In this document: in pieces, positions 1,799 to 12,693 of the stretch | Position numbering within the stretch: the stretch's first letter is position 1 | How the letters are laid out: each line of letters starts with the position of its first letter | IMG/VR virus record: IMGVR_UViG_2740892422_000012 | Length of the DNA: 32,590 nt | Reading direction: 5' to 3' (one strand) | Source: a virus | Lineage: Duplodnaviria; Heunggongvirae; Uroviricota; Caudoviricetes | The notes under the pieces: generated by a model | Told to the model about the DNA's origin: nothing | The model's input: the letters and a program-made list of their open reading frames with translations, nothing else | Databases searched by the model: none | Translations under genes and position numbers: made by a program

Positions 1799-2140
1799 AT
1801 GAAACAGCAACGTAATTCACGCTTTCGTAATGGTGCTGAACGCCACGCTAACCGTTTCGCTACCAGTGCATCACGCAGCAACATCCGCTACAGCCTGAGC
1901 GAAACACACGCAACGCCGGATGGCTACCCAGTAAAACAAATCGGCGAGCACGCCTGGTTGATTGAGAAAGCTGGAATCGTGGTCCACAAATGCCCACACA
2001 ATCCGTTTACCGGAAACCGCATTTTTGCACTAAGCAGCGGCGACAATCAGTTCGGACAGGATTTCACATTGTACGAAGCACTTCGTACAGTTGATCGTCT
2101 GCTTCGCGGACAAAGTTTTATTAAACAGGCTGATTTATAA
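1799..2140 (+). CDS. Hypothetical early protein
   Basis: 113-aa ORF, GGGAG RBS, tightly packed in the early operon. Confidence 0.55.
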   Translation: MKQQRNSRFRNGAERHANRFATSASRSNIRYSLSETHATPDGYPVKQIGEHAWLIEKAGIVVHKCPHNPFTGNRIFALSSGDNQFGQDFTLYEALRTVDRLLRGQSFIKQADL

Positions 2141-2150
2141 CAGGTGCTTT

Positions 2151-2429
2151 ATGACCAAAGAGCATGCACAAGGTGTATTTATCCGTTTTATTGATTTTCG
2201 CGGTGAACTGTTATTACGCGCATCGGCTATTGATGCTGTAGTTCCGGCAGAAAAAGATGTGGCCACTTACCTTTATCTGAACGGCACGCGATTGTTTGTG
2301 GAACTTCCGTACCAGACCGTACGCGAAATCATTAACGAAGCTGAAAAGGCACGTCAGGTTAATGGCGATGAACCATATATCGAAATTATCTGCATGGATT
2401 CAGAAACTGAAATTCAGAAAGCAGATTAA
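2151..2429 (+). CDS. Hypothetical early protein
   Basis: In-frame ATG at 2151 (MTKEHAQG...) chosen over track start 2091, which overlaps the upstream gene; AGGTG 4 nt upstream. Confidence 0.55.
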   Translation: MTKEHAQGVFIRFIDFRGELLLRASAIDAVVPAEKDVATYLYLNGTRLFVELPYQTVREIINEAEKARQVNGDEPYIEIICMDSETEIQKAD

Positions 2430-2440
2430 AGGGCGTTGCG

Positions 2441-2683
2441 ATGGGCAAAGAATATAAAACTCTCATTAACAAAGCACTTGAGCGTTTTTATTTTCGCTTA
2501 AGTGCATCAGGCGCTCATGCTGAACGTGCAGCCCGCGACTCATTGACCAGGGCAATTCGGAGTCTGTATGACGTGGCTTTTTACGCTGATGATCTGGATG
2601 CACTTAACGAACTTTCCGAGCTGATCTGTGCCGCAGAATGCGGGGAACATATTGAACCGTATAAGCTGGGGAATATTGCATGA
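2441..2683 (+). CDS. Hypothetical early protein
   Basis: 80-aa ORF in the same operon; helical, charged composition. Confidence 0.55.
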   Translation: MGKEYKTLINKALERFYFRLSASGAHAERAARDSLTRAIRSLYDVAFYADDLDALNELSELICAAECGEHIEPYKLGNIA

Positions 2684-2793
2684 GTATATTTATCTCATGG
2701 CTTGTTCTGATTATTTCGGTGGCCTGCGCCATTGGGATTATGCGAATTATTAATTCAGTAAAAAAGATTGAACGCTTTTTCACTGGTGAATAA
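2680..2793 (+). CDS. Small hydrophobic membrane peptide (37 aa), putative
   Basis: Not in the ORF track (below its size cut-off). ATG at 2680 overlaps upstream TGA (ATGA coupling); translation MSIFISWLVLIISVACAIGIMRIINSVKKIERFFTGE has one predicted transmembrane helix and a basic tail. Confidence 0.4.
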   Translation: MSIFISWLVLIISVACAIGIMRIINSVKKIERFFTGE

Positions 2794-2879
2794 CAGCGCA
2801 AATAAAACCACAGGTTAAATAAGAAAATGTAAAAACAATCCGCATTCGCGGAGGTATTCGCACACGCCAAGGAGGCGCA

Positions 2880-3083
2880 ATGGCAATTAAGCATTTTCCC
2901 GTCGTTCGTTTCACTTCCAGAGGACGTGAATACGAGGTCGACGAACGCCTGATTACCACAATCGACAAACACCGTTCAGAACAGGATGCACATCACATCT
3001 ATCTCACTGACGGCACTTACTTCTGCGCCACGAATGTGGTGCAGGTGAACCTTATCCGACAGGTACAGGAGTCACGCAGATGA
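2880..3083 (+). CDS. Hypothetical early protein
   Basis: 67-aa ORF with strong RBS AAGGAGG 5-10 nt upstream of ATG. Confidence 0.6.
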   Translation: MAIKHFPVVRFTSRGREYEVDERLITTIDKHRSEQDAHHIYLTDGTYFCATNVVQVNLIRQVQESRR

Positions 3084-3325: not shown

Positions 3326-4251
3326 GCGCCATCAACCACCAGGGATTACGCGAACTGGCAACTGACCTTCAACGAATGGCAACGCATCAAAAATTACTGG
3401 CGTTTCGCGCAATGCTCTCGCCGTCTGCTGTGCTGGCAATGCTGGATGAGCTGGAGCACGCCAGAACCACGGCTCCTGCCATTCGCCTGACACTCCATCA
3501 TGAAATTGCTGATTTCTGCGCGACGTTGGAGGCACCAGGCGAACCGGAAACGCCGGAAGCAATACAGCAAGAGCTGCTGCAACGCATTGACAAGGTTTTT
3601 GATTTTTTTTCTGAACCACTAAGAAACCAGAACATGCACACACAAAAAAACCGCTTGCCATGCCGTAATCAGTCAGGTTACATTTCCGCTGCACCTCATA
3701 AAACGGGTGCCGGGATTCTCAACCCGATACAGAGCAAAGCGCATAACCGCGCCAGCGGTTTTTTTGTGCGTACTGTATTGCCACGTCTTTTTCGCGTCAG
3801 AATTATGGCGGGGCGTACGGGGCCGACTTCGGTCGGGCCGGATTCTTTGCTCTCCGGTGTTGAGAACCCTGTACGTCTCGCCACCCCGAGATTCTCAACT
3901 CTGGATGGTGAGTTATTTCTATCACCGAGCAAAGAGGCCACACCATGGCAAACCGCAAACAGCACCGCGCATACGCTGCGCGTCGTCACATCCAGACTGA
4001 AATCAACCGCAGACTTTCCCGCGCATTCCGCGTCGCTAAAATCATGCACATCAATATGCTGCATGAGCGTAGCTGCGAACTTTCAAACCTCTATTCATCC
4101 GCTGTTTTCAGCTATCTGGCGGATGATCTGCGCGAGCTTCAGCAGCTCTTCCAGCAGCAAAACAAACCCCATTAATTCCTGTTCCGGGCCTTTCCTGCAC
4201 CTTGCGGCGGGAGGCCTTCGCACATCTGTAGTAAAGAGAATTGCAGCATGA
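3322..4251 (+). CDS. Hypothetical protein; only the N-terminal ~100 codons look protein-like, remainder of ORF is doubtful
   Basis: ORF 3322..4251 (309 codons) with GGAAG RBS. After about 3620 the translation becomes low-complexity (S/T/R/A-rich), crosses hairpins and a terminator-like structure, and overlaps the better-supported gene 3945..4175 in another frame. Confidence 0.3.
   Translation: MSAINHQGLRELATDLQRMATHQKLLAFRAMLSPSAVLAMLDELEHARTTAPAIRLTLHHEIADFCATLEAPGEPETPEAIQQELLQRIDKVFDFFSEPLRNQNMHTQKNRLPCRNQSGYISAAPHKTGAGILNPIQSKAHNRASGFFVRTVLPRLFRVRIMAGRTGPTSVGPDSLLSGVENPVRLATPRFSTLDGELFLSPSKEATPWQTANSTAHTLRVVTSRLKSTADFPAHSASLKSCTSICCMSVAANFQTSIHPLFSAIWRMICASFSSSSSSKTNPINSCSGPFLHLAAGGLRTSVVKRIAA
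3746..3766 (+). terminator. Candidate intrinsic terminator (short stem ACCGC/GCGGT, loop GCCA, then T7)
   Basis: Read directly: accgc gcca gcggt followed by ttttttt at 3759-3765. Lies inside the long ORF 3322..4251, which argues against that ORF being translated through here. Confidence 0.35.
3945..4175 (+). CDS. Small basic hypothetical protein (76 aa)
   Basis: AGAGG RBS 7 nt upstream of ATG; translation MANRKQHRAYAARRHIQTEINRRLSRAFRVAKIMHINMLHERS... is arginine-rich and helical. Confidence 0.5.
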   Translation: MANRKQHRAYAARRHIQTEINRRLSRAFRVAKIMHINMLHERSCELSNLYSSAVFSYLADDLRELQQLFQQQNKPH

Positions 4252-4637
4252 TTGACGCTCATGACTTCACAAGATGGGTGCGCACACAGGACACCCGTCT
4301 GGCTCCCGTTCTTCAGGGATTATTTGATCTCTACATCCGTGGTCGTGACAACAGAGCACGCACCACAAAACCGGAGAATGCAGACACCCTTTATTTCACA
4401 GTAGACGACTGCTACCGCGTGGACTTCACACCACACGGGCTGGCGTTGCACTGCCTGACACCACACGGCGAATCACTACTGGCGTATTACGACTCCCCGG
4501 CCTCCGTATTTGCGGCAATGCTGGCGCATCGCACTGCTGGCGGGTGTGCCTCGCTGAGTGAATACACCGCTGAATTTGACCGCCTTTCCGCCATCTTCTC
4601 GCAGGAGTGGCAGCGCGTGACGGGATACCAGCCATGA
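4248..4637 (+). CDS. Hypothetical protein (129 aa), translationally coupled to the replication gene
   Basis: ORF with stop overlapping the downstream ATG (ATGA at 4634-4637). Confidence 0.55.
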   Translation: MIDAHDFTRWVRTQDTRLAPVLQGLFDLYIRGRDNRARTTKPENADTLYFTVDDCYRVDFTPHGLALHCLTPHGESLLAYYDSPASVFAAMLAHRTAGGCASLSEYTAEFDRLSAIFSQEWQRVTGYQP

Positions 4638-7459
4638 GTGAGTTTGCATGGAGCTGGAATGAACCACGACCAGCCATTGATCCGGCCAGATTTACGGAGC
4701 GCAGGCAGGAAACTGAAACCGACTTGCAACGCGCCATCCGTTACTACCTTGAGGCGGACAAAAAGGCCCGGGAAGAACAGGAAGCGAAGGAGGAAGCCTT
4801 TTTCGCACAATCCGCCATGGGTAAAAAACTCATGGCATCCCTTGAGGAAGCCGGACAGCGTGAAAAGCTGGCACAGAGCATCATCAGTAAGCGCCGGGCA
4901 ACAGAACAAGACCCAGTAGCCCGTGCCTTTGCCACACTAAAGGCACTACCTGTTTATCTGCGTGAACCACTGAGCCGCCACCTCTCTTTCCTGCGCAAAA
5001 AACAGGAAGCCGATCGCCAGAAAGGCAAAAAGAGCTGGCAGGCGGAACGCTATGCACGCGGAACCCTGCGCAAAATATTCGAACGTCTAGATCGCACTGA
5101 CGGACGCTGGCTGACACCGGGTTATCGCTCCCTTGCCGGGCGCGAACGCCTGGACGATTTGCTTTACCTGCCGCAGCTCAACAAGCACCAGATACAGACG
5201 CTGGCCACCATGACCGCGGCGATGTTCAGCAGCACCTTCGAAACACTCTGCGATGGCTTTGGTGCCAGAGATGGCGAGCTGACCATGGATGTAATGTTGA
5301 AGGCTTACCGGATGCTGGCTCGTATCGCATTACGCCTGCACATCATGCCGCCACATTACGAAGCCCTGAACAAGAGCGAACCGGATACGGAACTGCTGCC
5401 GGGCGCAATCCTTCGCCTGACCTGTGCGGACTGGTGGAAACGCAAACTGTGGCTGTTACGTTGCGAGTGGAGAGAAGAACAACTCCGCGCCGCCTGTCTG
5501 GTTTCCAGAAAAACATCACCCTATCTGAGCCAGGACGCGTTAAGCGAGTTTCGCGCACAGCGCGAGAAAACACGCGATTTCCTGAAAAGTTTCATGCTGG
5601 AAAATGAAGACGGGTTCACGATTGATCTCGAGACGGTGTATTACGCGGGAGTAAGTAACCCGGTTCACCGTAAGGCAGAAATGATGGCCACCATGAAGGG
5701 ACTGGAACTTCTGGCCGAAGCCCGTGGCGACAGAGCGGTGTTTCTGACTGTCACCTGCCCGTCAAAATACCACGCAACAACGGAGAACGGTCATCCGAAT
5801 CCCAAATGGAACGGGGCCACCATGCGCGACTCCAGCGATTACCTGGTTAACACGTTTTTTGCGGCGGTCCGCAAGAAACTGAACCGCGACGGCCTGCGCT
5901 GGTATGGCATCCGCACGGTGGAGCCTCACCATGACGGCACCGTGCACTGGCATATGATGGTCTTTGCCCATCCGGAAGAAATCGACACCATTGTGTCCCA
6001 CACCCGCGATATTGCCATTCAGGAAGATCGTCACGAGCTGGGCGATGATATTACTCCGCGCTTTAAGGCGGAGTATGTAGACGGCTCAAAAGGCACGCCA
6101 ACCAGCTACATCGCCACCTACATCGGAAAGAACCTGGACAGCCGCGCCGTGGATGGCATCGACCCGAAAACAGGCAAACCACGCGTTGACCACGAAACCG
6201 GAAAATCAATGGCCGAGAGCGTGGAGCGCGCCATCGGCTGGGCGCGCCTTCACCGGGTCCGCCAGTTCCAGTTCTTTGGCATCCCATCCCGTCAGGTGTG
6301 GCGTGAACTGCGCCGCCTTGCCAGCCAGATGGCACGCAACCCGGAAGGCCCGCAACGGCTGAAGGATGACGCAATGGACGCGGTTCTTGCTGCCGCTGAT
6401 GCCGGATGTTTTGCCACCTACATTGAGAAACAGGGCGGCGTACTTGTTCCACGCAAAGACTACCTGATTCGCACCGCCTACGACCTCGCAGATGAGCTGA
6501 ACGATTACGGCGAACAGAGCGTACAGATTTACGGGATCTGGTCACCACTCATCGGGGAATCCTCCCGTGTGTGCACGCACCCGGATAACTGGAAGCTGGT
6601 AAGACGTAAACCGGAAGCGGAAGACAGCACCCGCGAAAATGGTTTTGACCTTCAGGGCGGCCCTGCCGCCCCTTGGACTCGTGGCAATAACTGTCCCCGT
6701 GTACAGGAAGCAGGCAACAGCGGGACAGAACTGTCGGAAGAGCAACCAACACCGTGGCCGCAGATCCCTGACGGCGTTGATGTGGATGAATGGATGCGCT
6801 CACTGAAACGGCACGAACGCCGGGCGCTGATGCGTTCGCTGCGTGACAAACAGGCAAAAAACAGCAGTGATGAAATGCAGAGCTGGACACAGAGCCGCAA
6901 ACAGCAGCGGCCTTTGCCTGATAACCACGAATTACTCGCTAAAGAATGGCGGGAGTCTGCCGAATCTCTCGGCCTGCATATCGGTGAACAGCAGATGCAG
7001 CACCTGTTACGGGGCGGCAGCCTGTACGTTGACGGCAGCATCATTGCACCGCAGGGATTTGAAATTGTACGCAAACCGGATACCCGCCCGGACAGCCGAA
7101 TCACGCAGCTCTGGCAGCGCCTGAGCCGTAATCATGGCGTAAGCAGCACGGAGATCCGCCATAACCCGGTCGCCAGCTATCTGACACAGCTGGGGGCATC
7201 AGACCCTGAAGCCGCCGCACGCCTGGCATCCACACTTCAGCAGGACCAGAACACCATGAAAACCCCCGTTACCGTGCTTTCTGACATGCTGCGCGCCATC
7301 CGTGACGCAGAGCACGCACAGAGAATCAGTGAAACAACTGAACGCGCCCGCCGCAAAGCAGACCTGCTGCGGGGTGGCCTGATCAGTGGAAACAAAAAAC
7401 AGACAGAAACGGGATTCACAAATCCCGTAAATGAGCAAAAAACGTGCCGCGATGTATGA
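4634..7459 (+). CDS. Rolling-circle replication initiator, HUH endonuclease (P2 gene A homolog)
   Basis: Contains the HUH motif VEPHHDGTVHWHMMVFAH; large protein in the position of P2 A. Start set at ATG 4634 (track start 4607 is GTG with RBS too close). About 941 aa, longer than the roughly 760 aa recalled for P2 A. Confidence 0.85.
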   Translation: MSEFAWSWNEPRPAIDPARFTERRQETETDLQRAIRYYLEADKKAREEQEAKEEAFFAQSAMGKKLMASLEEAGQREKLAQSIISKRRATEQDPVARAFATLKALPVYLREPLSRHLSFLRKKQEADRQKGKKSWQAERYARGTLRKIFERLDRTDGRWLTPGYRSLAGRERLDDLLYLPQLNKHQIQTLATMTAAMFSSTFETLCDGFGARDGELTMDVMLKAYRMLARIALRLHIMPPHYEALNKSEPDTELLPGAILRLTCADWWKRKLWLLRCEWREEQLRAACLVSRKTSPYLSQDALSEFRAQREKTRDFLKSFMLENEDGFTIDLETVYYAGVSNPVHRKAEMMATMKGLELLAEARGDRAVFLTVTCPSKYHATTENGHPNPKWNGATMRDSSDYLVNTFFAAVRKKLNRDGLRWYGIRTVEPHHDGTVHWHMMVFAHPEEIDTIVSHTRDIAIQEDRHELGDDITPRFKAEYVDGSKGTPTSYIATYIGKNLDSRAVDGIDPKTGKPRVDHETGKSMAESVERAIGWARLHRVRQFQFFGIPSRQVWRELRRLASQMARNPEGPQRLKDDAMDAVLAAADAGCFATYIEKQGGVLVPRKDYLIRTAYDLADELNDYGEQSVQIYGIWSPLIGESSRVCTHPDNWKLVRRKPEAEDSTRENGFDLQGGPAAPWTRGNNCPRVQEAGNSGTELSEEQPTPWPQIPDGVDVDEWMRSLKRHERRALMRSLRDKQAKNSSDEMQSWTQSRKQQRPLPDNHELLAKEWRESAESLGLHIGEQQMQHLLRGGSLYVDGSIIAPQGFEIVRKPDTRPDSRITQLWQRLSRNHGVSSTEIRHNPVASYLTQLGASDPEAAARLASTLQQDQNTMKTPVTVLSDMLRAIRDAEHAQRISETTERARRKADLLRGGLISGNKKQTETGFTNPVNEQKTCRDV

Positions 7460-7505
7460 AGCGCGCACAAAACAGGCAAAAGCGGGATTCCAGAATCCCG
7501 TAAAC
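7408..7505. promoter_or_regulatory. Two copies of an inverted-repeat site CGGGATT-N4-AATCCCG-TAAA; candidate parC-like centromere/operator or origin element
   Basis: Copies at 7410..7427 and 7483..7500, each within a roughly 37-bp imperfect direct repeat. First copy is inside the 3' end of gene A, second is 35 bp upstream of the parM start. Confidence 0.4.
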
Positions 7506-7535
7506 GGTTAATTAATCAACATAAGGAAAATCGAC

Positions 7536-8495
7536 ATGAAAATTTGTATCGACGACGGCTCCACCAACATCAAGCTGGCATGGACTGAGAACGGCGAACG
7601 CCGCAACGCCATCAGCCCGAACAGCTTCAAGTCGGAATGGTCTGCGCCGTTCGGTGGCTCGCAGCCTGCGAACTACATGCTTGATGGCGTGCGCTATGGT
7701 TTTGATCCGGTCAGCGATCGCTTTGTCCAGACGACCGACACGCAATACCAGTACAGCGATGTGAATGTCATTGCCATTCATCACGCGCTGGTCAAATCAG
7801 GCATCACGCCTCAGGAGGTGGATGTGGTTGTCACCCTGCCACTGAGCGAGTATTTCGACACAAACGCACAGCCAGACATGGCCAACATCAACCGCAAAAA
7901 AGCGAACGTTATGCGCCCGGTGGAGTACCAGAACGGCGAAGCATTCACTATCCGTAACGTGCGGGTTATGCCTGAATCCATTCCGGCTGGTTTTAAGGCA
8001 CTGGCTGACATGAGTCCGTTTGAATCCCTGCTGATTGTGGATTTGGGCGGAACCACGCTGGATGTGGCAAAGGTTCAGGGGCAACTGGCAGGTATCAGCC
8101 AGGTGTTTTGCGATCCACACGTAGGCGTTTCTCTGATGGCTGATGCCGTGCTGTCGGTGATGGCCACTAACGGTATGCGTACCAGTCACCACATCGCCAA
8201 TACCATTATTGAGCACCGTCACGATGAAGCCTGGCTACGCCAGCACATTCACAATGACGCGCATTACAACAGCCTGATGGCGGTTATTCGTGAAAAGGAG
8301 GAAACACTGAAACAACGCGTGATCCGCGCGCTGGCGGGTTTTTCGGGTTACGGGCGGGTGATGGTTGTAGGTGGAGGAGCGGAGATTGTGGCACCCGCTA
8401 TCCGCGAAGCCTGCGGAGTTAATGCGACTTTCATCGCGGACGGGGTGCCACAGTTTGCTCTGGTTAATGGGCTGTACGCAATGGACAAGGAGTAA
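7536..8495 (+). CDS. parM: ParM/StbA-family actin-like segregation ATPase
   Basis: Motifs IDDGSTNIKL, PNSFK, YSDVNVIAIHHAL, VDVVVTLPL, IVDLGGTTLD, VMVVGGGAEI align with recalled plasmid R1 ParM (StbA); AAGGAAAA RBS. Confidence 0.85.
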   Translation: MKICIDDGSTNIKLAWTENGERRNAISPNSFKSEWSAPFGGSQPANYMLDGVRYGFDPVSDRFVQTTDTQYQYSDVNVIAIHHALVKSGITPQEVDVVVTLPLSEYFDTNAQPDMANINRKKANVMRPVEYQNGEAFTIRNVRVMPESIPAGFKALADMSPFESLLIVDLGGTTLDVAKVQGQLAGISQVFCDPHVGVSLMADAVLSVMATNGMRTSHHIANTIIEHRHDEAWLRQHIHNDAHYNSLMAVIREKEETLKQRVIRALAGFSGYGRVMVVGGGAEIVAPAIREACGVNATFIADGVPQFALVNGLYAMDKE

Positions 8496-8499
8496 ATCA

Positions 8500-8814
8500 A
8501 TGACGACACCAACCAGACGGATAAGTTTCTATCTGAAGCCCGCCGTCGTCAAGAGCGAACGGGAGGCGTGCAGTTACCTCGACAGCCTGCCAGCCTCCGA
8601 ACGCAGCCGCGCACAACGCGCGGCTTTTCTGGCCGGACTGGCTCTTATAAAACGCATCCCCGCGTTGGCGTATTCGCTGGCAGAATGGTCAGAAGACGAA
8701 ATAAGGATGCCACCGCTACCAGTACAGCCTGAAAAACCGGCGAAACCAGCAGCAGACAGCGCCCCCCATATGCAGCAGGTGAAGAAGAATATTCAGGCGT
8801 TTTTTCCGAAGTGA
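8500..8814 (+). CDS. parR: ParR/StbB-like ribbon-helix-helix partition adaptor
   Basis: Start ATG 8500, 5 nt after parM stop. N-terminus MTTPTRRISFYLKPAV...LDSLPASERSRAQRAAFLAGLAL parallels recalled R1 ParR (RRTIAFKLNPDV...LDSIPQGERSRLNRAALTAGLAL). Confidence 0.8.
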   Translation: MTTPTRRISFYLKPAVVKSEREACSYLDSLPASERSRAQRAAFLAGLALIKRIPALAYSLAEWSEDEIRMPPLPVQPEKPAKPAADSAPHMQQVKKNIQAFFPK

Positions 8815-8828
8815 AAACAGGAGTAACT

Positions 8829-9116
8829 ATGTCCACCATTACCAAAGAATGGTTACAACGTAAAATCACAGAGTTTAAATCGTGGCGCGAAGACATCCCG
8901 TTCGGTCTTGATGAAGACGATCACAATATGTTAATCGCACTGGAAATCGCACTTGCATCACTGGAAGCAGAGCCAGTGGCATGGATGCACGCAAATAATC
9001 CTATTGGAATACCGGCGATAACAAGAAGTAAAGATGTTGCAGACAGCTGGCGCTCTAAGGGATGGAATGTATTGCCTCTTTATTCACTGACCCGCTCCAT
9101 CAATTTATGCCATTAA
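8829..9116 (+). CDS. Hypothetical protein (95 aa), co-transcribed with parMR
   Basis: ATG 8829 with ACAGGAG RBS (track GTG start 8811 overlaps parR); composition becomes more AT-rich from here, suggesting separately acquired cargo. Confidence 0.5.
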   Translation: MSTITKEWLQRKITEFKSWREDIPFGLDEDDHNMLIALEIALASLEAEPVAWMHANNPIGIPAITRSKDVADSWRSKGWNVLPLYSLTRSINLCH

Positions 9117-9127
9117 TGGAAGTAATC

Positions 9128-9487
9128 ATGATGAAAGATAATTCCGGAAGCCAGCGTGCATCAGTTGCAGTTATGGTAATGATTAAATTTGTGAAACAGT
9201 ACACCGGAAAGCCAACCTCGCTCCGGCAATTAAGCAAAGAAACCGTTTCACTGTCATATCTGGAGCAAATATTCAGATATTTACGGGAAAGTAGCCTGGT
9301 AAAAGCCACACGCGGCCCGGGTGGTGGATATATCCCAACAAAAGAAAATTACAGTGTTGGTGATATTGTCCGGGCAATGAAATGTTCCGGATTATATACA
9401 CAGCACGTTATTCTGGCTGCACTGGATAATATTTCTTTAACCAGCCTGCAGGAAGACACAAATTATCAGTTGTCTGCCATTGAATAA
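9128..9487 (+). CDS. Rrf2-family winged-helix transcriptional regulator, no cysteine cluster
   Basis: Signature VSLSYLEQIFRYLRESSLVKATRGPGGGY matches the Rrf2/IscR DNA-binding motif (compare IscR [29 protein letters not shown] from memory); lacks the three-cysteine Fe-S ligand cluster. Start at ATG 9128 with GGAAG upstream. Confidence 0.75.
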   Translation: MMKDNSGSQRASVAVMVMIKFVKQYTGKPTSLRQLSKETVSLSYLEQIFRYLRESSLVKATRGPGGGYIPTKENYSVGDIVRAMKCSGLYTQHVILAALDNISLTSLQEDTNYQLSAIE

Positions 9488-9492
9488 GAAAA

Positions 9493-9533
9493 CCCGGAAC
9501 GGGTGCGCAAATTCTTTGTGCGCCCGTTCCGGG
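9493..9533. terminator. Long hairpin between convergent genes; intrinsic terminator mainly for the minus-strand transcript
   Basis: 19-bp stem (two G-T wobbles) cccggaacgggtgcgcaaa / tttgtgcgcccgttccggg, loop ttc. On the minus strand it is followed by TTTTCTT; on the plus strand an A-tract precedes it. Confidence 0.6.
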
Positions 9534-9558
9534 TTGGACAAGCGAAGCGCGTCAGCTA

Positions 9559-9813
9559 TCAGGCCTGCAACAACTCCAGAGCCATTTGTTTTTCTTCCGG
9601 ACGCATCCGCTCAATCAACAGCTTTAACACACCATTCTCCAGCCCGCTGGGCACCAGTGTGTGCGAGTAGGTCAGATTCATCACCCAGGTATGTCCGCAC
9701 TCGAGACGGGTGCAACGGTAATACACATCAGCAAACTGATCGGTTTTCCAGGCTGTTTTCTCAATCACTGCATGTGCACCGCAGCAATGACATCGCGCTT
9801 TCTGTCTGCGCAT
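9559..9813 (-). CDS. ogr: Ogr/Delta-family zinc-finger late transcription activator
   Basis: Start at internal ATG 9813 with GGGAGGTGGAAA RBS; product MRRQKARCHCCGAHAV...YYRCTRLECGHTW has a C-x2-C ... C-x4-C zinc-finger arrangement typical of Ogr/Delta. Confidence 0.75.
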   Translation of the reverse strand: MRRQKARCHCCGAHAVIEKTAWKTDQFADVYYRCTRLECGHTWVMNLTYSHTLVPSGLENGVLKLLIERMRPEEKQMALELLQA

Positions 9814-9844
9814 TTTCCACCTCCCGGAACAGCGTTTTACTGCC

Positions 9845-9878
9845 ACCGATTTTACCCGCTCTTTCCCCATACCGCACA
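9845..9878. other. Candidate cos (cohesive end) region
   Basis: Minus-strand sequence GTGCGGTATGGGGAAAGAGCGGG contains GGGGAAAG, resembling the recalled P2/186 cohesive-end core (GGCGAGGCGGGGAAAGCAC); lies just downstream of the portal gene 3' end as in P2. Weak, memory-based. Confidence 0.25.
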
Positions 9879-10913
9879 TCACTCCGTGGATTCGTTAAAT
9901 TCAAGAATAAATTCCACCTGCCCCAGCCGTCTGATATCCGGATCGCTGTTGATCCCCTCCATAATCAGACGGCGCATCGGAATAACCTCATCTCTGTAAT
10001 ATGCCTCGCGGGATTTCAGTGGGTCACCAAGCCCGGCCGTATTTGCGGGAATGATGCCGGCAAGTCCGGGTGGAAAACGGTGCGCAACGAGCTGATCCTG
10101 GGCACTGATGGTTTTTATATTCAGGAACTCATCTTTTGTGCCTGAATCCCCGATAGGGATCACCTTAACGCCTTCTTTGTCTCCGCCCGGTATATTGATA
10201 AACATGGATTTAAAATTGCCCGCCCCTTTTGACGCCTCTATCTTTTTACGGAATTCCGCCTCGAGCTCGGGATCCATGTCCGGGTCAGTGGAATACAGGA
10301 TATAACCAAGATGTGCGCCGTTCTTGTAATACTTGCGGCGAAAGCGGGTGGCATCCACATTCAGCATGGCGGATTCCATCCCGTGAATATAATCCGGGAC
10401 ACCGTAAACCTGCTGTTGCGGGTCATAAATGGCCACGAACACCACTTCGCCTGGCGGGTAAACGAGATCTTCCAGTGCTGCCTGCACAATCACCGTGCCA
10501 CCCTCGTTGTTACGCCGCAGGTACAGAGAAGGTAACGTATGCAGGCGCACCACGCGACCGAAGCCATTGCGCACTTTAAGCAACCCCATATCCCCGAATA
10601 TCAGCAGATTGGTTACTGCTGCCGCCATGGCGGCGTGTGTCATACCACCACCACCCCGAAAACCCTGCATGATCATATTGACGCGCGCACGCAATACCGC
10701 GCCGTGATACGGTGCGATATTGGACAACATGGCGAGATCCATGCGCTCAATTGGCGGCGTGTACCAGCCGTTATAGCCATCCCAGAGCGAGCCGTAATAA
10801 CAGCCCCATGCAGCGACCGGTTCCGGGTCACCAAATTCAATAAACGTCATTTTGCTGGCTGTTTTTTTTGCCACGCCATCGTGTAACACGGGGTATTTTT
10901 TCTTTTTACTCAT
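9879..10913 (-). CDS. Portal protein (P2 gpQ-like)
   Basis: 344-aa ORF, same size and position as P2 Q, upstream of and co-oriented with the large terminase. Confidence 0.85.
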   Translation of the reverse strand: MSKKKKYPVLHDGVAKKTASKMTFIEFGDPEPVAAWGCYYGSLWDGYNGWYTPPIERMDLAMLSNIAPYHGAVLRARVNMIMQGFRGGGGMTHAAMAAAVTNLLIFGDMGLLKVRNGFGRVVRLHTLPSLYLRRNNEGGTVIVQAALEDLVYPPGEVVFVAIYDPQQQVYGVPDYIHGMESAMLNVDATRFRRKYYKNGAHLGYILYSTDPDMDPELEAEFRKKIEASKGAGNFKSMFINIPGGDKEGVKVIPIGDSGTKDEFLNIKTISAQDQLVAHRFPPGLAGIIPANTAGLGDPLKSREAYYRDEVIPMRRLIMEGINSDPDIRRLGQVEFILEFNESTE

Positions 10914-12693
10914 CTGACAGGATCCATGTTGATTTGCGCTTGTGCTTATAGTTCAGGGGTTCATTACTTGCGGCATGAGCGATGGCAAAGAAGATGTCAG
11001 CGTGCCCGGTTTCTTCGCTACGTTCGGCGGTGAAAGTGACTTTATTGCCACTGTTGGTGGATTCCTGACGAATGGCCAGGAACGATGCCGGAATGTCCGT
11101 GGCTTCCTCATCCCACTCAATACGGTTGGCGTAAATCAGATCCAGCATCTTCATCACCAGGCGGTTTTTGGATTCCACGCTGTAATGAATGGCCACTGTT
11201 TCACGGCGGGCAAATCCCTGAACCAGCTCAAAGACACCGTAGCCAAGACCGGTGACATCAATGCCGATAAACGTCATGTTATAGCGTGCCTTAATGCTGC
11301 GGATACGCTCTGCCATAAACTGGAATGACATGCTGCGCCAGTGGTGTTTTTCCAGCACGCGGAATCGTTCTGCCGCAACCAGCGGCGGTGCCAGCACAAC
11401 AAATGTGGCGTTATCGCCGGAGCGCGCAGGGTCAAAGCCGCCCCACACCTCACGGTTACCAAATGGCATGGGCTCTTCCGGGTGAAAATCCTCCCACGTA
11501 CTGACATCAACACCACAACGCACAAGATCATCAAATTTAAAGACGCTCTCTTTGTCATCCACAAACACACACATAAACAGCATATTGAACGCTGTTTCGT
11601 TGTATCGCTCGCGCAGCTCGTTGATGTCAGCAAGGTTAAAGCCGCCGGCAATGGCATCTTCCAGCGTAACCACATAGCGCCACTGACCATCCGGACATTC
11701 ACGCCCACCATCGCGCAGCTCATCAAAGGACGGAAACTCAACCCCTTTTCGTTTCGGATCGCCTTTGCGCCATTCATCGCCAGACCAGAACGGGTAACCC
11801 TGGTGTGTTTTGGATGACGGCGTGGAGAAATAGGTAATGCGCCAGTGTTTATGGGTGGCCATCCCTGATGCCACTTCATTGAGACGGCGAAAACCGGGGA
11901 TCCACAGGTATTCATCAATATACAGGTGGCCGCTGTTTGACTGCGCTGTGTTACTGTTGGTCGCCAGAAAATACAGTTCAGCCAGATTACTTAACTTAAC
12001 CGGATTGCCTTTAATGGGAATGCCAAACTCTGTTTGTGCAATTTTTACAATATAAGTACGGAATACTTCGGCCTGACGTTTTGATGCCGATAAAAATATC
12101 TGTGTGTCGCCGGTTAATACTGCATCTTCAAATGCCTCAAACGCGAAGTAATACGTCGCCCCAATCTGGCGGGATTTAAGCAGGTTGCGTACACGGCGGA
12201 ATTTGTTTTCACGCAGGAGCAACTGGTAAGTAAACAACTTTTTCGTAAACGGCTCAAAACTTTCAGCAGTCAGTCCGGAAACGTCATTAGCTTTGCGGGG
12301 GCGCTCTTTCTTACCTGCACCTTTTTCTCCGCGTTCTTCTTTTCCATAACGACCAGACTGGGGAATATCCGCTCCCATTCGTTCAATCTCGGCCATTCGT
12401 TCCGTGTGCTTGTTCCTGACCGACATCAGTTTGACGTGATGGCCAATCAGGCGATCGAGTTCATCGTGTTCTTCCGGCGTTTTATGATCACGCTCCGCCA
12501 GTACAGCGAGACGACGGGCGATAACATCTTCCACGCCTTCAGTATTAAGCTGTGTGTACCACTCAAACTTTGTCGCCCAGTAATAAACAATTCGCGGGCT
12601 GTTCAGTCCGAGTTTCTTTTGTATTTCTTTTGGTGTGTGCCTTTTCAGATAGAGCGATTTTGCAGCAGCAATCACCTCATCAGAATACGCCAT
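10906..12693 (-). CDS. Terminase large (ATPase) subunit (P2 gpP-like)
   Basis: 595-aa ORF, divergent from the scaffold/capsid operon as in P2; RBS AGGTGAGG upstream on the minus strand; 8-nt overlap with the portal gene. Confidence 0.85.
   Translation of the reverse strand: MAYSDEVIAAAKSLYLKRHTPKEIQKKLGLNSPRIVYYWATKFEWYTQLNTEGVEDVIARRLAVLAERDHKTPEEHDELDRLIGHHVKLMSVRNKHTERMAEIERMGADIPQSGRYGKEERGEKGAGKKERPRKANDVSGLTAESFEPFTKKLFTYQLLLRENKFRRVRNLLKSRQIGATYYFAFEAFEDAVLTGDTQIFLSASKRQAEVFRTYIVKIAQTEFGIPIKGNPVKLSNLAELYFLATNSNTAQSNSGHLYIDEYLWIPGFRRLNEVASGMATHKHWRITYFSTPSSKTHQGYPFWSGDEWRKGDPKRKGVEFPSFDELRDGGRECPDGQWRYVVTLEDAIAGGFNLADINELRERYNETAFNMLFMCVFVDDKESVFKFDDLVRCGVDVSTWEDFHPEEPMPFGNREVWGGFDPARSGDNATFVVLAPPLVAAERFRVLEKHHWRSMSFQFMAERIRSIKARYNMTFIGIDVTGLGYGVFELVQGFARRETVAIHYSVESKNRLVMKMLDLIYANRIEWDEEATDIPASFLAIRQESTNSGNKVTFTAERSEETGHADIFFAIAHAASNEPLNYKHKRKSTWILSDE

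Follow-up and report, generated by a model that had tools for sequence, protein, structure and literature searches.

A truncated Rrf2-family protein encoded by an accessory insert in the gpA-gpQ hotspot of a P2-like prophage

The DNA analysed here (the window), the 32,590-nucleotide stretch IMGVR_UViG_2740892422_000012, is a P2-like prophage from Escherichia coli, and in a genome 99% identical to it the prophage adjoins pheA. Its positions 8829-9487 carry an AT-rich pair of genes, orf95, encoding 95 amino acids (aa), and a second gene encoding a 119-aa protein that will be named hereafter mini-Rrf2. Mini-Rrf2 is a genuine but truncated Rrf2 protein, and the two genes form an accessory insert in the variable hotspot between replication gene A and portal gene Q (gpA-gpQ) of a prophage with an early region of the P88 type (Xuanwuvirus). 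We consider it rather probable that the insert as a whole provides a DNA-binding regulator that is expressed early and is blind to signals, with orf95 being a mere neighbour. An earlier note on this DNA, made from the letters alone, had given the coordinates and lengths of the two open reading frames (ORFs) correctly.

The mini-Rrf2 protein and its phage relatives

Mini-Rrf2 matched the Pfam family Rrf2 (PF02082) with 50 bits against a gathering cut-off of 30 (E=4.4e-13), the match covering only positions 2-85 of the 132 of the profile, and RefSeq labels the gene product 'RrF2 family transcriptional regulator'. Residues 57-68 form the motif LVKATRGPGGGY. More stringent NCBIfam cut-offs were missed, both for the superfamily model rrf2_super (53.7 vs 73.3 bits) and for the IscR equivalogs TIGR02010 and NF008110 (57.7 vs 207.55 bits and 44.9 vs 275 bits, respectively). 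Nor is the gene the first of an isc operon, as expected for IscR; that is, it sits between parR and ogr. The best sequence matches in the PDB were nevertheless the structures of E. coli IscR, with 40% identity over residues 14-87 of mini-Rrf2. An AlphaFold2 (AF2) model (predicted local distance difference test, pLDDT, 82.7; predicted template-modelling score, pTM, 0.77) has helix 1, a short helix 2, a recognition helix at 42-54, wing strands at 58-61 and 67-70 and a helix at 77-83. When this model was compared with the PDB by Foldseek, the top 36 matches were all Rrf2 proteins, with apo-IscR (4HF0) being the best (template-modelling score, TM, 0.74; E=3.7e-7). Both AF2 and Foldseek thus give a winged helix-turn-helix (wHTH) with a recognition helix and a glycine-rich wing, and the Rrf2 signature reported in the earlier note is sound. 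The likeness to E. coli apo-IscR (PDB 4HF0/4HF1), the closest protein in both sequence and fold, is greatest in the parts that read DNA: the recognition helix (SLSYLEQIF, residues 41-49) is nearly identical, SLSYLEQ[IL]F covering both proteins, and the wing RGPGGGY (residues 62-68) is shared.

What is missing relative to canonical Rrf2 proteins is a block of 22-27 alignment columns, comprising the entire cysteine loop together with the N-terminal half of the long dimerisation helix, after which the alignment resumes, with ...VILAALDNISLTSL of mini-Rrf2 pairing with ...LTGFLNNITLGEL of IscR. In the AF2 model the C-terminus consists of an eight-residue helix (93-100) and a short helix (104-109), and no long dimerisation helix is formed. 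Rrf2 proteins that sense iron-sulphur (Fe-S) clusters, i.e. IscR, NsrR and RsrR, have three clustered cysteines plus a histidine or aspartate in a loop after helix 4. Mini-Rrf2 has a single cysteine, C86, and it aligns with none of the IscR residues C92, C98 and C104. The term 'cysteine-less' used in the earlier note was therefore inexact as to the count, although it holds for the three IscR-type ligands; the absence of the Fe-S cysteine cluster was rightly noticed, but the alignments with IscR attribute it to deletion of the whole loop, and the loss of about half of the dimerisation helix had escaped attention. Of the two modes of action proposed at that time, a plain repressor is plausible as judged from the sequence, while a ligand sensor finds no support because the sensing loop is deleted. 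Mini-Rrf2 also differs from IscR in being shorter (119 vs 162 aa), in lacking the C-terminal tail, in having the conserved N-terminal MRLTxKGRYA replaced, and in that its gene is phage-borne, AT-rich and away from isc genes. CymR (PDB 2Y75, 3T8R) resembles it as an Rrf2 protein that works without an Fe-S cluster, with fold matches at TM 0.62-0.71. In CymR the dimerisation helix is complete and control is exerted by a partner, the protein CysK; mini-Rrf2 is shorter and no partner is evident.

The same truncated architecture recurs among phages. An exhaustive HMMER search over 1.84 billion cluster representatives returned about 20 clusters of proteins 95-123 aa long, whose match extends as far as the short helices at the C-terminus, and these clusters diverge from one another by 50% or more. 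When 21 short proteins were aligned against E. coli IscR, all 21 lacked the same stretch of about 22 columns. A tblastn search of IMG/VR with mini-Rrf2 (E <=1e-3) gave 286 stretches with an Rrf2-type relative; the best 80 of these 286 were kept, all of which are short-form and 11 of which are 98-99% identical to the window protein. Judging from these alignments, the truncation defines the family and is no local accident. PHROGs already groups the short proteins as phrog_24072 (E=1e-46), with the function listed as unknown; they include proteins of Citrobacter phage Chris1 (annotated 'iron-sulfur cluster regulator') and Klebsiella phage Kp4865-4 (an unannotated ORF), both temperate enterobacterial phages like the present one, whose proteins have the same architecture and 37-47% identity to mini-Rrf2. 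A search of plasmids gave no mini-Rrf2 gene, and orf95 modules alone were present on a few of them. No paper on a phage-encoded truncated Rrf2 was found in the literature search. The RefSeq annotation, the catalogued gene arrangement (see below) and the PHROG number of the truncated phage subfamily, which comes with no described function, were already known.

Within the alignment of the 21 short proteins, S41, S43, Y44, E46, G63, G65-G67, Y68 and L99 are invariant and Q47, F49, L52, V58, R62, P64 and V77 nearly so. In IscR, S40, E43 and Q44 touch the major groove of type-2 sites, E43 setting the type-2 specificity; NsrR recognises other sequences and carries T, A and K in their place (PMC5411485). 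The corresponding residues are all retained in mini-Rrf2 (S43, E46 and Q47), as is the wing arginine (R62, equivalent to R59 of IscR), and by alignment the IscR-like base-contact residues are kept, invariant or nearly so, throughout the 21 family members. Between the E. coli and Salmonella alleles the ratio of non-synonymous to synonymous substitution rates (dN/dS) of mini-Rrf2 is 0.10 (8 synonymous and 3 non-synonymous changes). This is like the value for parM (0.09); mini-Rrf2 is a maintained gene and not a relic.

Accessory status, genomic contexts and the neighbour orf95

The GC content of the two-gene cassette is 0.428, compared with 0.527 for the whole window and about 55% for the flanks, and GC at third codon positions is 0.43 and 0.39 in the two cassette genes vs 0.59-0.64 in gpA, parM and parR. 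No more than 0.19% of equal-sized windows have a GC content as low, and one further stretch, near 2040-3020, is comparable. The drop in GC from 8829 onward is thus real. Among 5426 complete E. coli genomes the mini-Rrf2 gene occurs in 37, each time with at least 98.9% identity and intact frames, as against about 1300 genomes with parMR and 657 with orf95 segments. In most related prophages the homology to the window ends at 8642-8697, inside parR, and in P88 and vB_EcoM-569R5 unrelated genes occupy the interval between parR and the portal gene. The earlier note had called the pair cargo, a designation that uniform composition together with core presence in P2-like relatives would contradict; as the composition is not uniform and the gene is not core, it stands.

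The gpA-gpQ interval is an accessory hotspot of P2 defined by Rousset 2022 (PMC9122126) and taken up again in PMC13586616. Its known occupants include old and tin, and many are defence systems (PMC9122126). The cassette lies in the same slot, between replication gene A and portal gene Q, and varies among related prophages as those occupants do, but differs from them in having neither a match to a known defence family nor an effector domain. The present arrangement is itself among the 1,650 listed in Table S5A of Rousset 2022 (PMC9122126; accessions WP_000104418 and WP_000974052), outside the tested set. Two degraded versions of the prophage were also seen: in E. coli K_EC180 (L001 7057-9418) ogr is truncated, and in STEC306 (L097 4794-6700) orf95 is truncated and the Rrf2 gene is gone. 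In both, the portal-to-tail genes are missing and the remaining early region lies directly against tail-fibre genes.

ORFs were mapped around 15 representative loci and their neighbours clustered, which gave three classes of context. Class 1 comprises loci of E. coli and Salmonella where the gene follows parMR in the P2 hotspot (the window and L009-L016). Class 2 is a lambdoid early-left region with the order cI-like helix-turn-helix repressor, DUF1482 protein, mini-Rrf2, RecE-like exonuclease VIII, xis and int; it includes Klebsiella phage Kp4865-4, Citrobacter phage Chris1 and many IMG/VR prophages. Class 3 is a lambdoid replication module with an O-like initiator, sometimes a DnaC-like loader, a double-wHTH protein of the DUF1627/phrog_630 type, mini-Rrf2, a weak Lar-like zinc ribbon and nin-type genes (L008, L028, L029, L037 and L043). 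All three are early transcription units, and no neighbour is common to all. In class 3 the stop codon of the DUF1627/phrog_630 gene and the start codon of mini-Rrf2 overlap. The DUF1627/phrog_630 protein (L029 4328-5002; also in L008, L028 and L043) has winged-helix signals of its own and a faint Rrf2 match (E=0.009), and is a possible partner of mini-Rrf2 in class 3 only. Separately, a conserved non-coding stretch of about 140 nucleotides separates mini-Rrf2 from the RecE-like gene in L048 (5337-5477), with equivalents in L006, L030, L034, L036 and L038; it opens with the hairpin AACCCGCGCAAGGCGGGTT, has no Rfam match, and could be a terminator or other RNA element.

These contexts bear on the relation between the two genes of the cassette, which are co-oriented and separated by 11 bp. 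At 12 lambdoid loci the neighbours of mini-Rrf2 are genes other than orf95-like ones, as in Chris1 and Kp4865-4, where the gene lies between the cI-like repressor and the RecE-like exonuclease. In the other P2-like alleles the mini-Rrf2 gene is constant and has between one and three orf95-like genes ahead of it. The pairing of orf95 and mini-Rrf2 is thus confined to near-identical P2-like alleles; the two are a linkage group within one lineage and not a conserved module, and the earlier view of them as a pair is not supported by co-occurrence. As relatives of mini-Rrf2 occupy three different early-operon contexts, orf95 is no obligate partner but a neighbour. The insert was most probably assembled from early-region genes of lambdoid phages.

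Orf95 itself, which is preceded by a strong Shine-Dalgarno sequence (AGGAG at 8819-8823, 5 nt ahead of the ATG), had been said to have no recognisable family. This is true for Pfam, NCBIfam and PADLOC, none of which gave a match, but PHROG families were matched (660, E=3e-18, as well as 60, 5117 and 3323) and 274 homologues were found, named 'Eaa', 'DUF551 domain-containing' or, wrongly, 'valyl-tRNA synthetase'. By sequence, orf95 can be placed in a very common family that shares the Eaa/DUF551 N-terminal module. The first module of this family is an N-terminal helical hairpin with the near-invariant end ALASLEAEPVAW, the second a small domain (...GIPAITRSKDVADSW.SKGW.V.PLY), and optional C-terminal domains may lie beyond. 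Like the Eaa/DUF551-type lambdoid 'ea' proteins, to which it is 50-100% identical per module, orf95 has the N-terminal helical module and the small domain, but it is without DUF551 or any other C-terminal domain. The AF2 model (pLDDT 84.8) consists of a helical hairpin and a small beta-alpha-beta domain; PDB searches by sequence and by fold gave nothing significant, and the fold matches in BFVD were all to uncharacterised or DUF551-type phage proteins. The dN/dS value against the Salmonella allele is 0.72 (3 synonymous and 8 non-synonymous changes), indicating weak constraint.

Orf95 is also a chimera. Two alleles with four genes (L013 4295-5267 and L016 1557-2529) have orf95-like genes of 137 and 88 aa flanking a 95-aa phrog_2821 gene, with the same Rrf2 gene last. 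The first 51 residues of orf95 match the 137-aa gene and the remainder matches the 88-aa gene 648 bp further on. At the nucleotide level, 7400-8980 and 8943-11000 of the window match different paralogous genes of these alleles, the overlap being the junction listed in Table 1. Among the junction residues, A41, L42 and A47 do not vary across 46 aligned family members, and conservation over A43-V50 is 90% or more. Orf95 thus looks like a two-module recombinant of the two outer genes seen in L013 and L016.

Transcription signals, proposed function and alternative explanations

A promoter scan found no credible sigma-70 site ahead of the cassette or between parR and orf95. Because of this, and because the gap after the parR stop codon is 14 bp, the cassette is likely, as far as the sequence tells, to be co-transcribed with parMR. 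Mini-Rrf2 would most likely be made early after induction or infection, from the distal end of the early/parMR transcription unit, since no promoter of its own was detected and its relatives lie inside lambdoid early-left and replication operons. It would also probably belong to the early lytic products and not to the factors of lysogenic conversion, given that no sigma-70-like promoter follows parR and that the lambdoid relatives are in operons repressed in lysogens. Downstream, the convergent mini-Rrf2 and ogr genes are separated by a hairpin with a free energy of -43.3 kcal/mol (z = -7.2) and a T-run on the minus (ogr) side only, which is a likely terminator. This hairpin stays with the Rrf2 gene in the Salmonella allele L009, in which an insertion of 873 bp (5729-6601) lies just beyond it, entering precisely where the hairpin gives way to the stop codon of ogr (window 9556/9558). 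The insertion carries a minus-strand gene for 209 aa (phrog_12870, weak DUF6338) and marks a nested insertion point within the hotspot.

The protein that would be produced can be described as an IscR-like wHTH stripped of the Fe-S sensing loop and of the first half of the dimerisation helix. As the loop is lost, mini-Rrf2 would lack the means by which canonical Rrf2 proteins sense Fe-S, nitric oxide or redox status. Its DNA binding would be constitutive and signal-blind, with activity being set only by its own expression. We infer that its target may be a sequence shared by the hosts of these phages, of the IscR type-2 kind; such a host target is likelier than a phage operator because the reading head is the same in unrelated phages belonging to several genera.

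A palindromic operator near the parM promoter or within 8815-9127, where the earlier note had suggested looking, was found neither by palindrome nor by motif searches: in 7400-9600 they detected only the terminator hairpin and, across the start of the Rrf2 gene, a weak palindrome at 9103-9126. The type-1 motif showed no excess, and Rfam gave no match inside the cassette. A looser type-2 motif (WWWWCCxYAxxxxxxxTRxGGWWWW, <=3 mismatches) occurred 35 times vs 17.7 expected, its best match being in the early-gene region at 2804-2828, but the matches are scattered in coding DNA and were judged uninformative. A provisional 26-mer type-2 consensus had one match with three mismatches, inside ogr at 9722-9747 (0.01 expected), which was not relied on because only 4/9 of the published critical bases are kept.

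Several points weigh against the interpretation of mini-Rrf2 as an early, signal-blind DNA-binding regulator of host sites. Rrf2 proteins need to dimerise in order to bind DNA, and the shortening of the dimer helix may stand in the way of this. The SYLEQ helix is largely common to CymR-type proteins too, and specificity for IscR boxes is not guaranteed. The type-2 motif AxxxCCxxAxxxxxxxTAxGGxxxT (<=1 mismatch) occurs in the window 5 times vs 4.3 expected, with none near the cassette, and in the 15 representative loci 13 times vs about 28 expected. No palindrome is common to the three context classes; the one that recurs, a hairpin downstream of the gene, does so among class-2 phages, which are related to one another. 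The consensus promoter scan is crude and leaves room for an internal promoter active in lysogens. Finally, the enrichment of the hotspot in defence systems favours another kind of function.

Mini-Rrf2 could instead be a phage-internal regulator that times the late activator ogr or feeds back on the early/parMR operon. It adjoins ogr, which is convergent with it and separated from it by the hairpin alone, and the single match to the 26-mer consensus, inside ogr, would also fit; ogr in turn adjoins the portal gene in every fetched allele that retains the latter. We nonetheless consider this unlikely. By our own comparison, the site in ogr at 9722-9747 falls well short of the critical motif, as said above. 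Relatives in ogr-less lambdoid phages and unrelated operons keep the same reading-head residues, which would be unexpected if phage-specific operators were read. Moreover, most related P2-like prophages are without the mini-Rrf2 gene, and it is therefore not needed for the lytic programme.

That the cassette serves anti-phage defence or superinfection exclusion, with the wHTH protein as sensor or regulator and orf95 as effector, is suggested by its location in a hotspot where many cargoes are such systems and by the tight linkage of the two genes in all P2-like alleles. This seems to us decidedly unlikely, as PADLOC-DB 2.0 gave no family for orf95, mini-Rrf2 or ogr at E up to 1, and neither cassette protein has an enzymatic or membrane effector domain. 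Furthermore, the relatives of mini-Rrf2 in lambdoid early operons lie outside the hotspot and without orf95, orf95 varies between one and three copies, is chimeric and weakly constrained, and no promoter was found for expression in lysogens. A toxin-antitoxin pair was rejected, there being no toxin-like domain and the upstream gene being variable and chimeric.

Interference at the protein level, in which mini-Rrf2 would use its remaining C-terminal helices to pair with IscR of the host, or with a different Rrf2 protein, and poison the partner, is very improbable. The C-terminal VLxALDxVxL does align with the end of the IscR dimer helix and the ITLGEL helix, L99 is invariant, and the deletion shrinks the homodimer interface. 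The family is, however, most strongly conserved in the DNA-reading helix and the wing and not in the C-terminal helices, which argues for DNA binding as the selected function. Decaying junk, i.e. a truncated relic of a cellular iscR beside a gene fragment, is barely credible: the truncation, the score under the NCBIfam superfamily cut-off and the chimeric orf95 with its high dN/dS would fit it, but not the architecture kept in about 20 divergent clusters, the low dN/dS of mini-Rrf2, frames intact in 37/37 genomes or the confident AF2 fold.

Further features of the prophage and wider meaning

Table 1. Features of the window around the two-gene insert
Feature	Position	Strand	Identification
Replication endonuclease gpA	4607-7459	+	
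parM	7536-8495	+	Pfam StbA_N/ParM_N
parR/StbB	8500-8814	+	Pfam Plasmid_stab_B
orf95 (95 aa)	8829-9116	+	ORF, Shine-Dalgarno, PHROG 660/60
Shared junction (38 bp) between the two orf95 modules	8943-8980	+	encodes IALASLEAEPVAW
mini-Rrf2 (119 aa)	9128-9487	+	Pfam, NCBIfam, PHROG phrog_24072
Hairpin, 21-bp stem	9491-9535	.	inverted repeat and terminator scan
ogr/delta-type zinc-finger late activator	9559-9816	-	Pfam Ogr_Delta E=1.4e-12, RefSeq annotation
Portal gene (gpQ)	9879-10913	-	
Large terminase	10906-12693	-	

Some other features of the prophage were observed in passing. The genes at 7536-8814 make up an actin-type ParM/ParR (StbA/StbB) plasmid partition pair inside an integrated P2-like prophage. 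Two near-identical hairpins (CGGGATT-N4-AATCCCG) at 7409-7428 and 7483-7500, 74 bp apart, straddle the end of gpA and the region upstream of parM and are candidate ParR/parC sites or minus-strand terminators. In the early region, Rfam matches at gathering level were obtained on the plus strand for the Hfq-binding RNA isrK (3691-3765, 62.8 bits) and for a C4 antisense RNA (3801-3888, 78.5 bits). Close relatives carry 'ash family' and 'derepression' genes in the part of the early region around these positions, and 3691-3888 looks like an antirepressor control module of the P1/P7 immI type within a P2-like prophage.

Rrf2 regulators are studied as sensors, and here a phage lineage has consistently lost the sensor together with part of the dimer interface but has retained the reading head of IscR. 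Sensor loss with purifying selection on the reading head suggests that phages may override a global regulator of the host or, at the least, possess a minimal DNA-binding scaffold of the Rrf2 type. A bolder proposal, to which we give little credence at present, is that a signal-blind 'mini-IscR' family in diverse temperate enterobacterial phages (P2-like, Rac-like and other lambdoid) is produced soon after induction or infection and occupies the type-2 boxes of the host, or displaces or poisons IscR. The programme controlled by IscR comprises Fe-S biogenesis, anaerobic respiration, fimbriae and biofilm formation, and virulence. If mini-Rrf2 is an ordinary phage-internal repressor, the finding is routine. 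The results also urge some caution, in that not every occupant of the P2 hotspot need be a defence system. If the bolder proposal is true, the IscR-controlled programme would be locked in a state that favours the phage, and mini-Rrf2 would amount to a viral protein that mimics a global regulator of metabolism.

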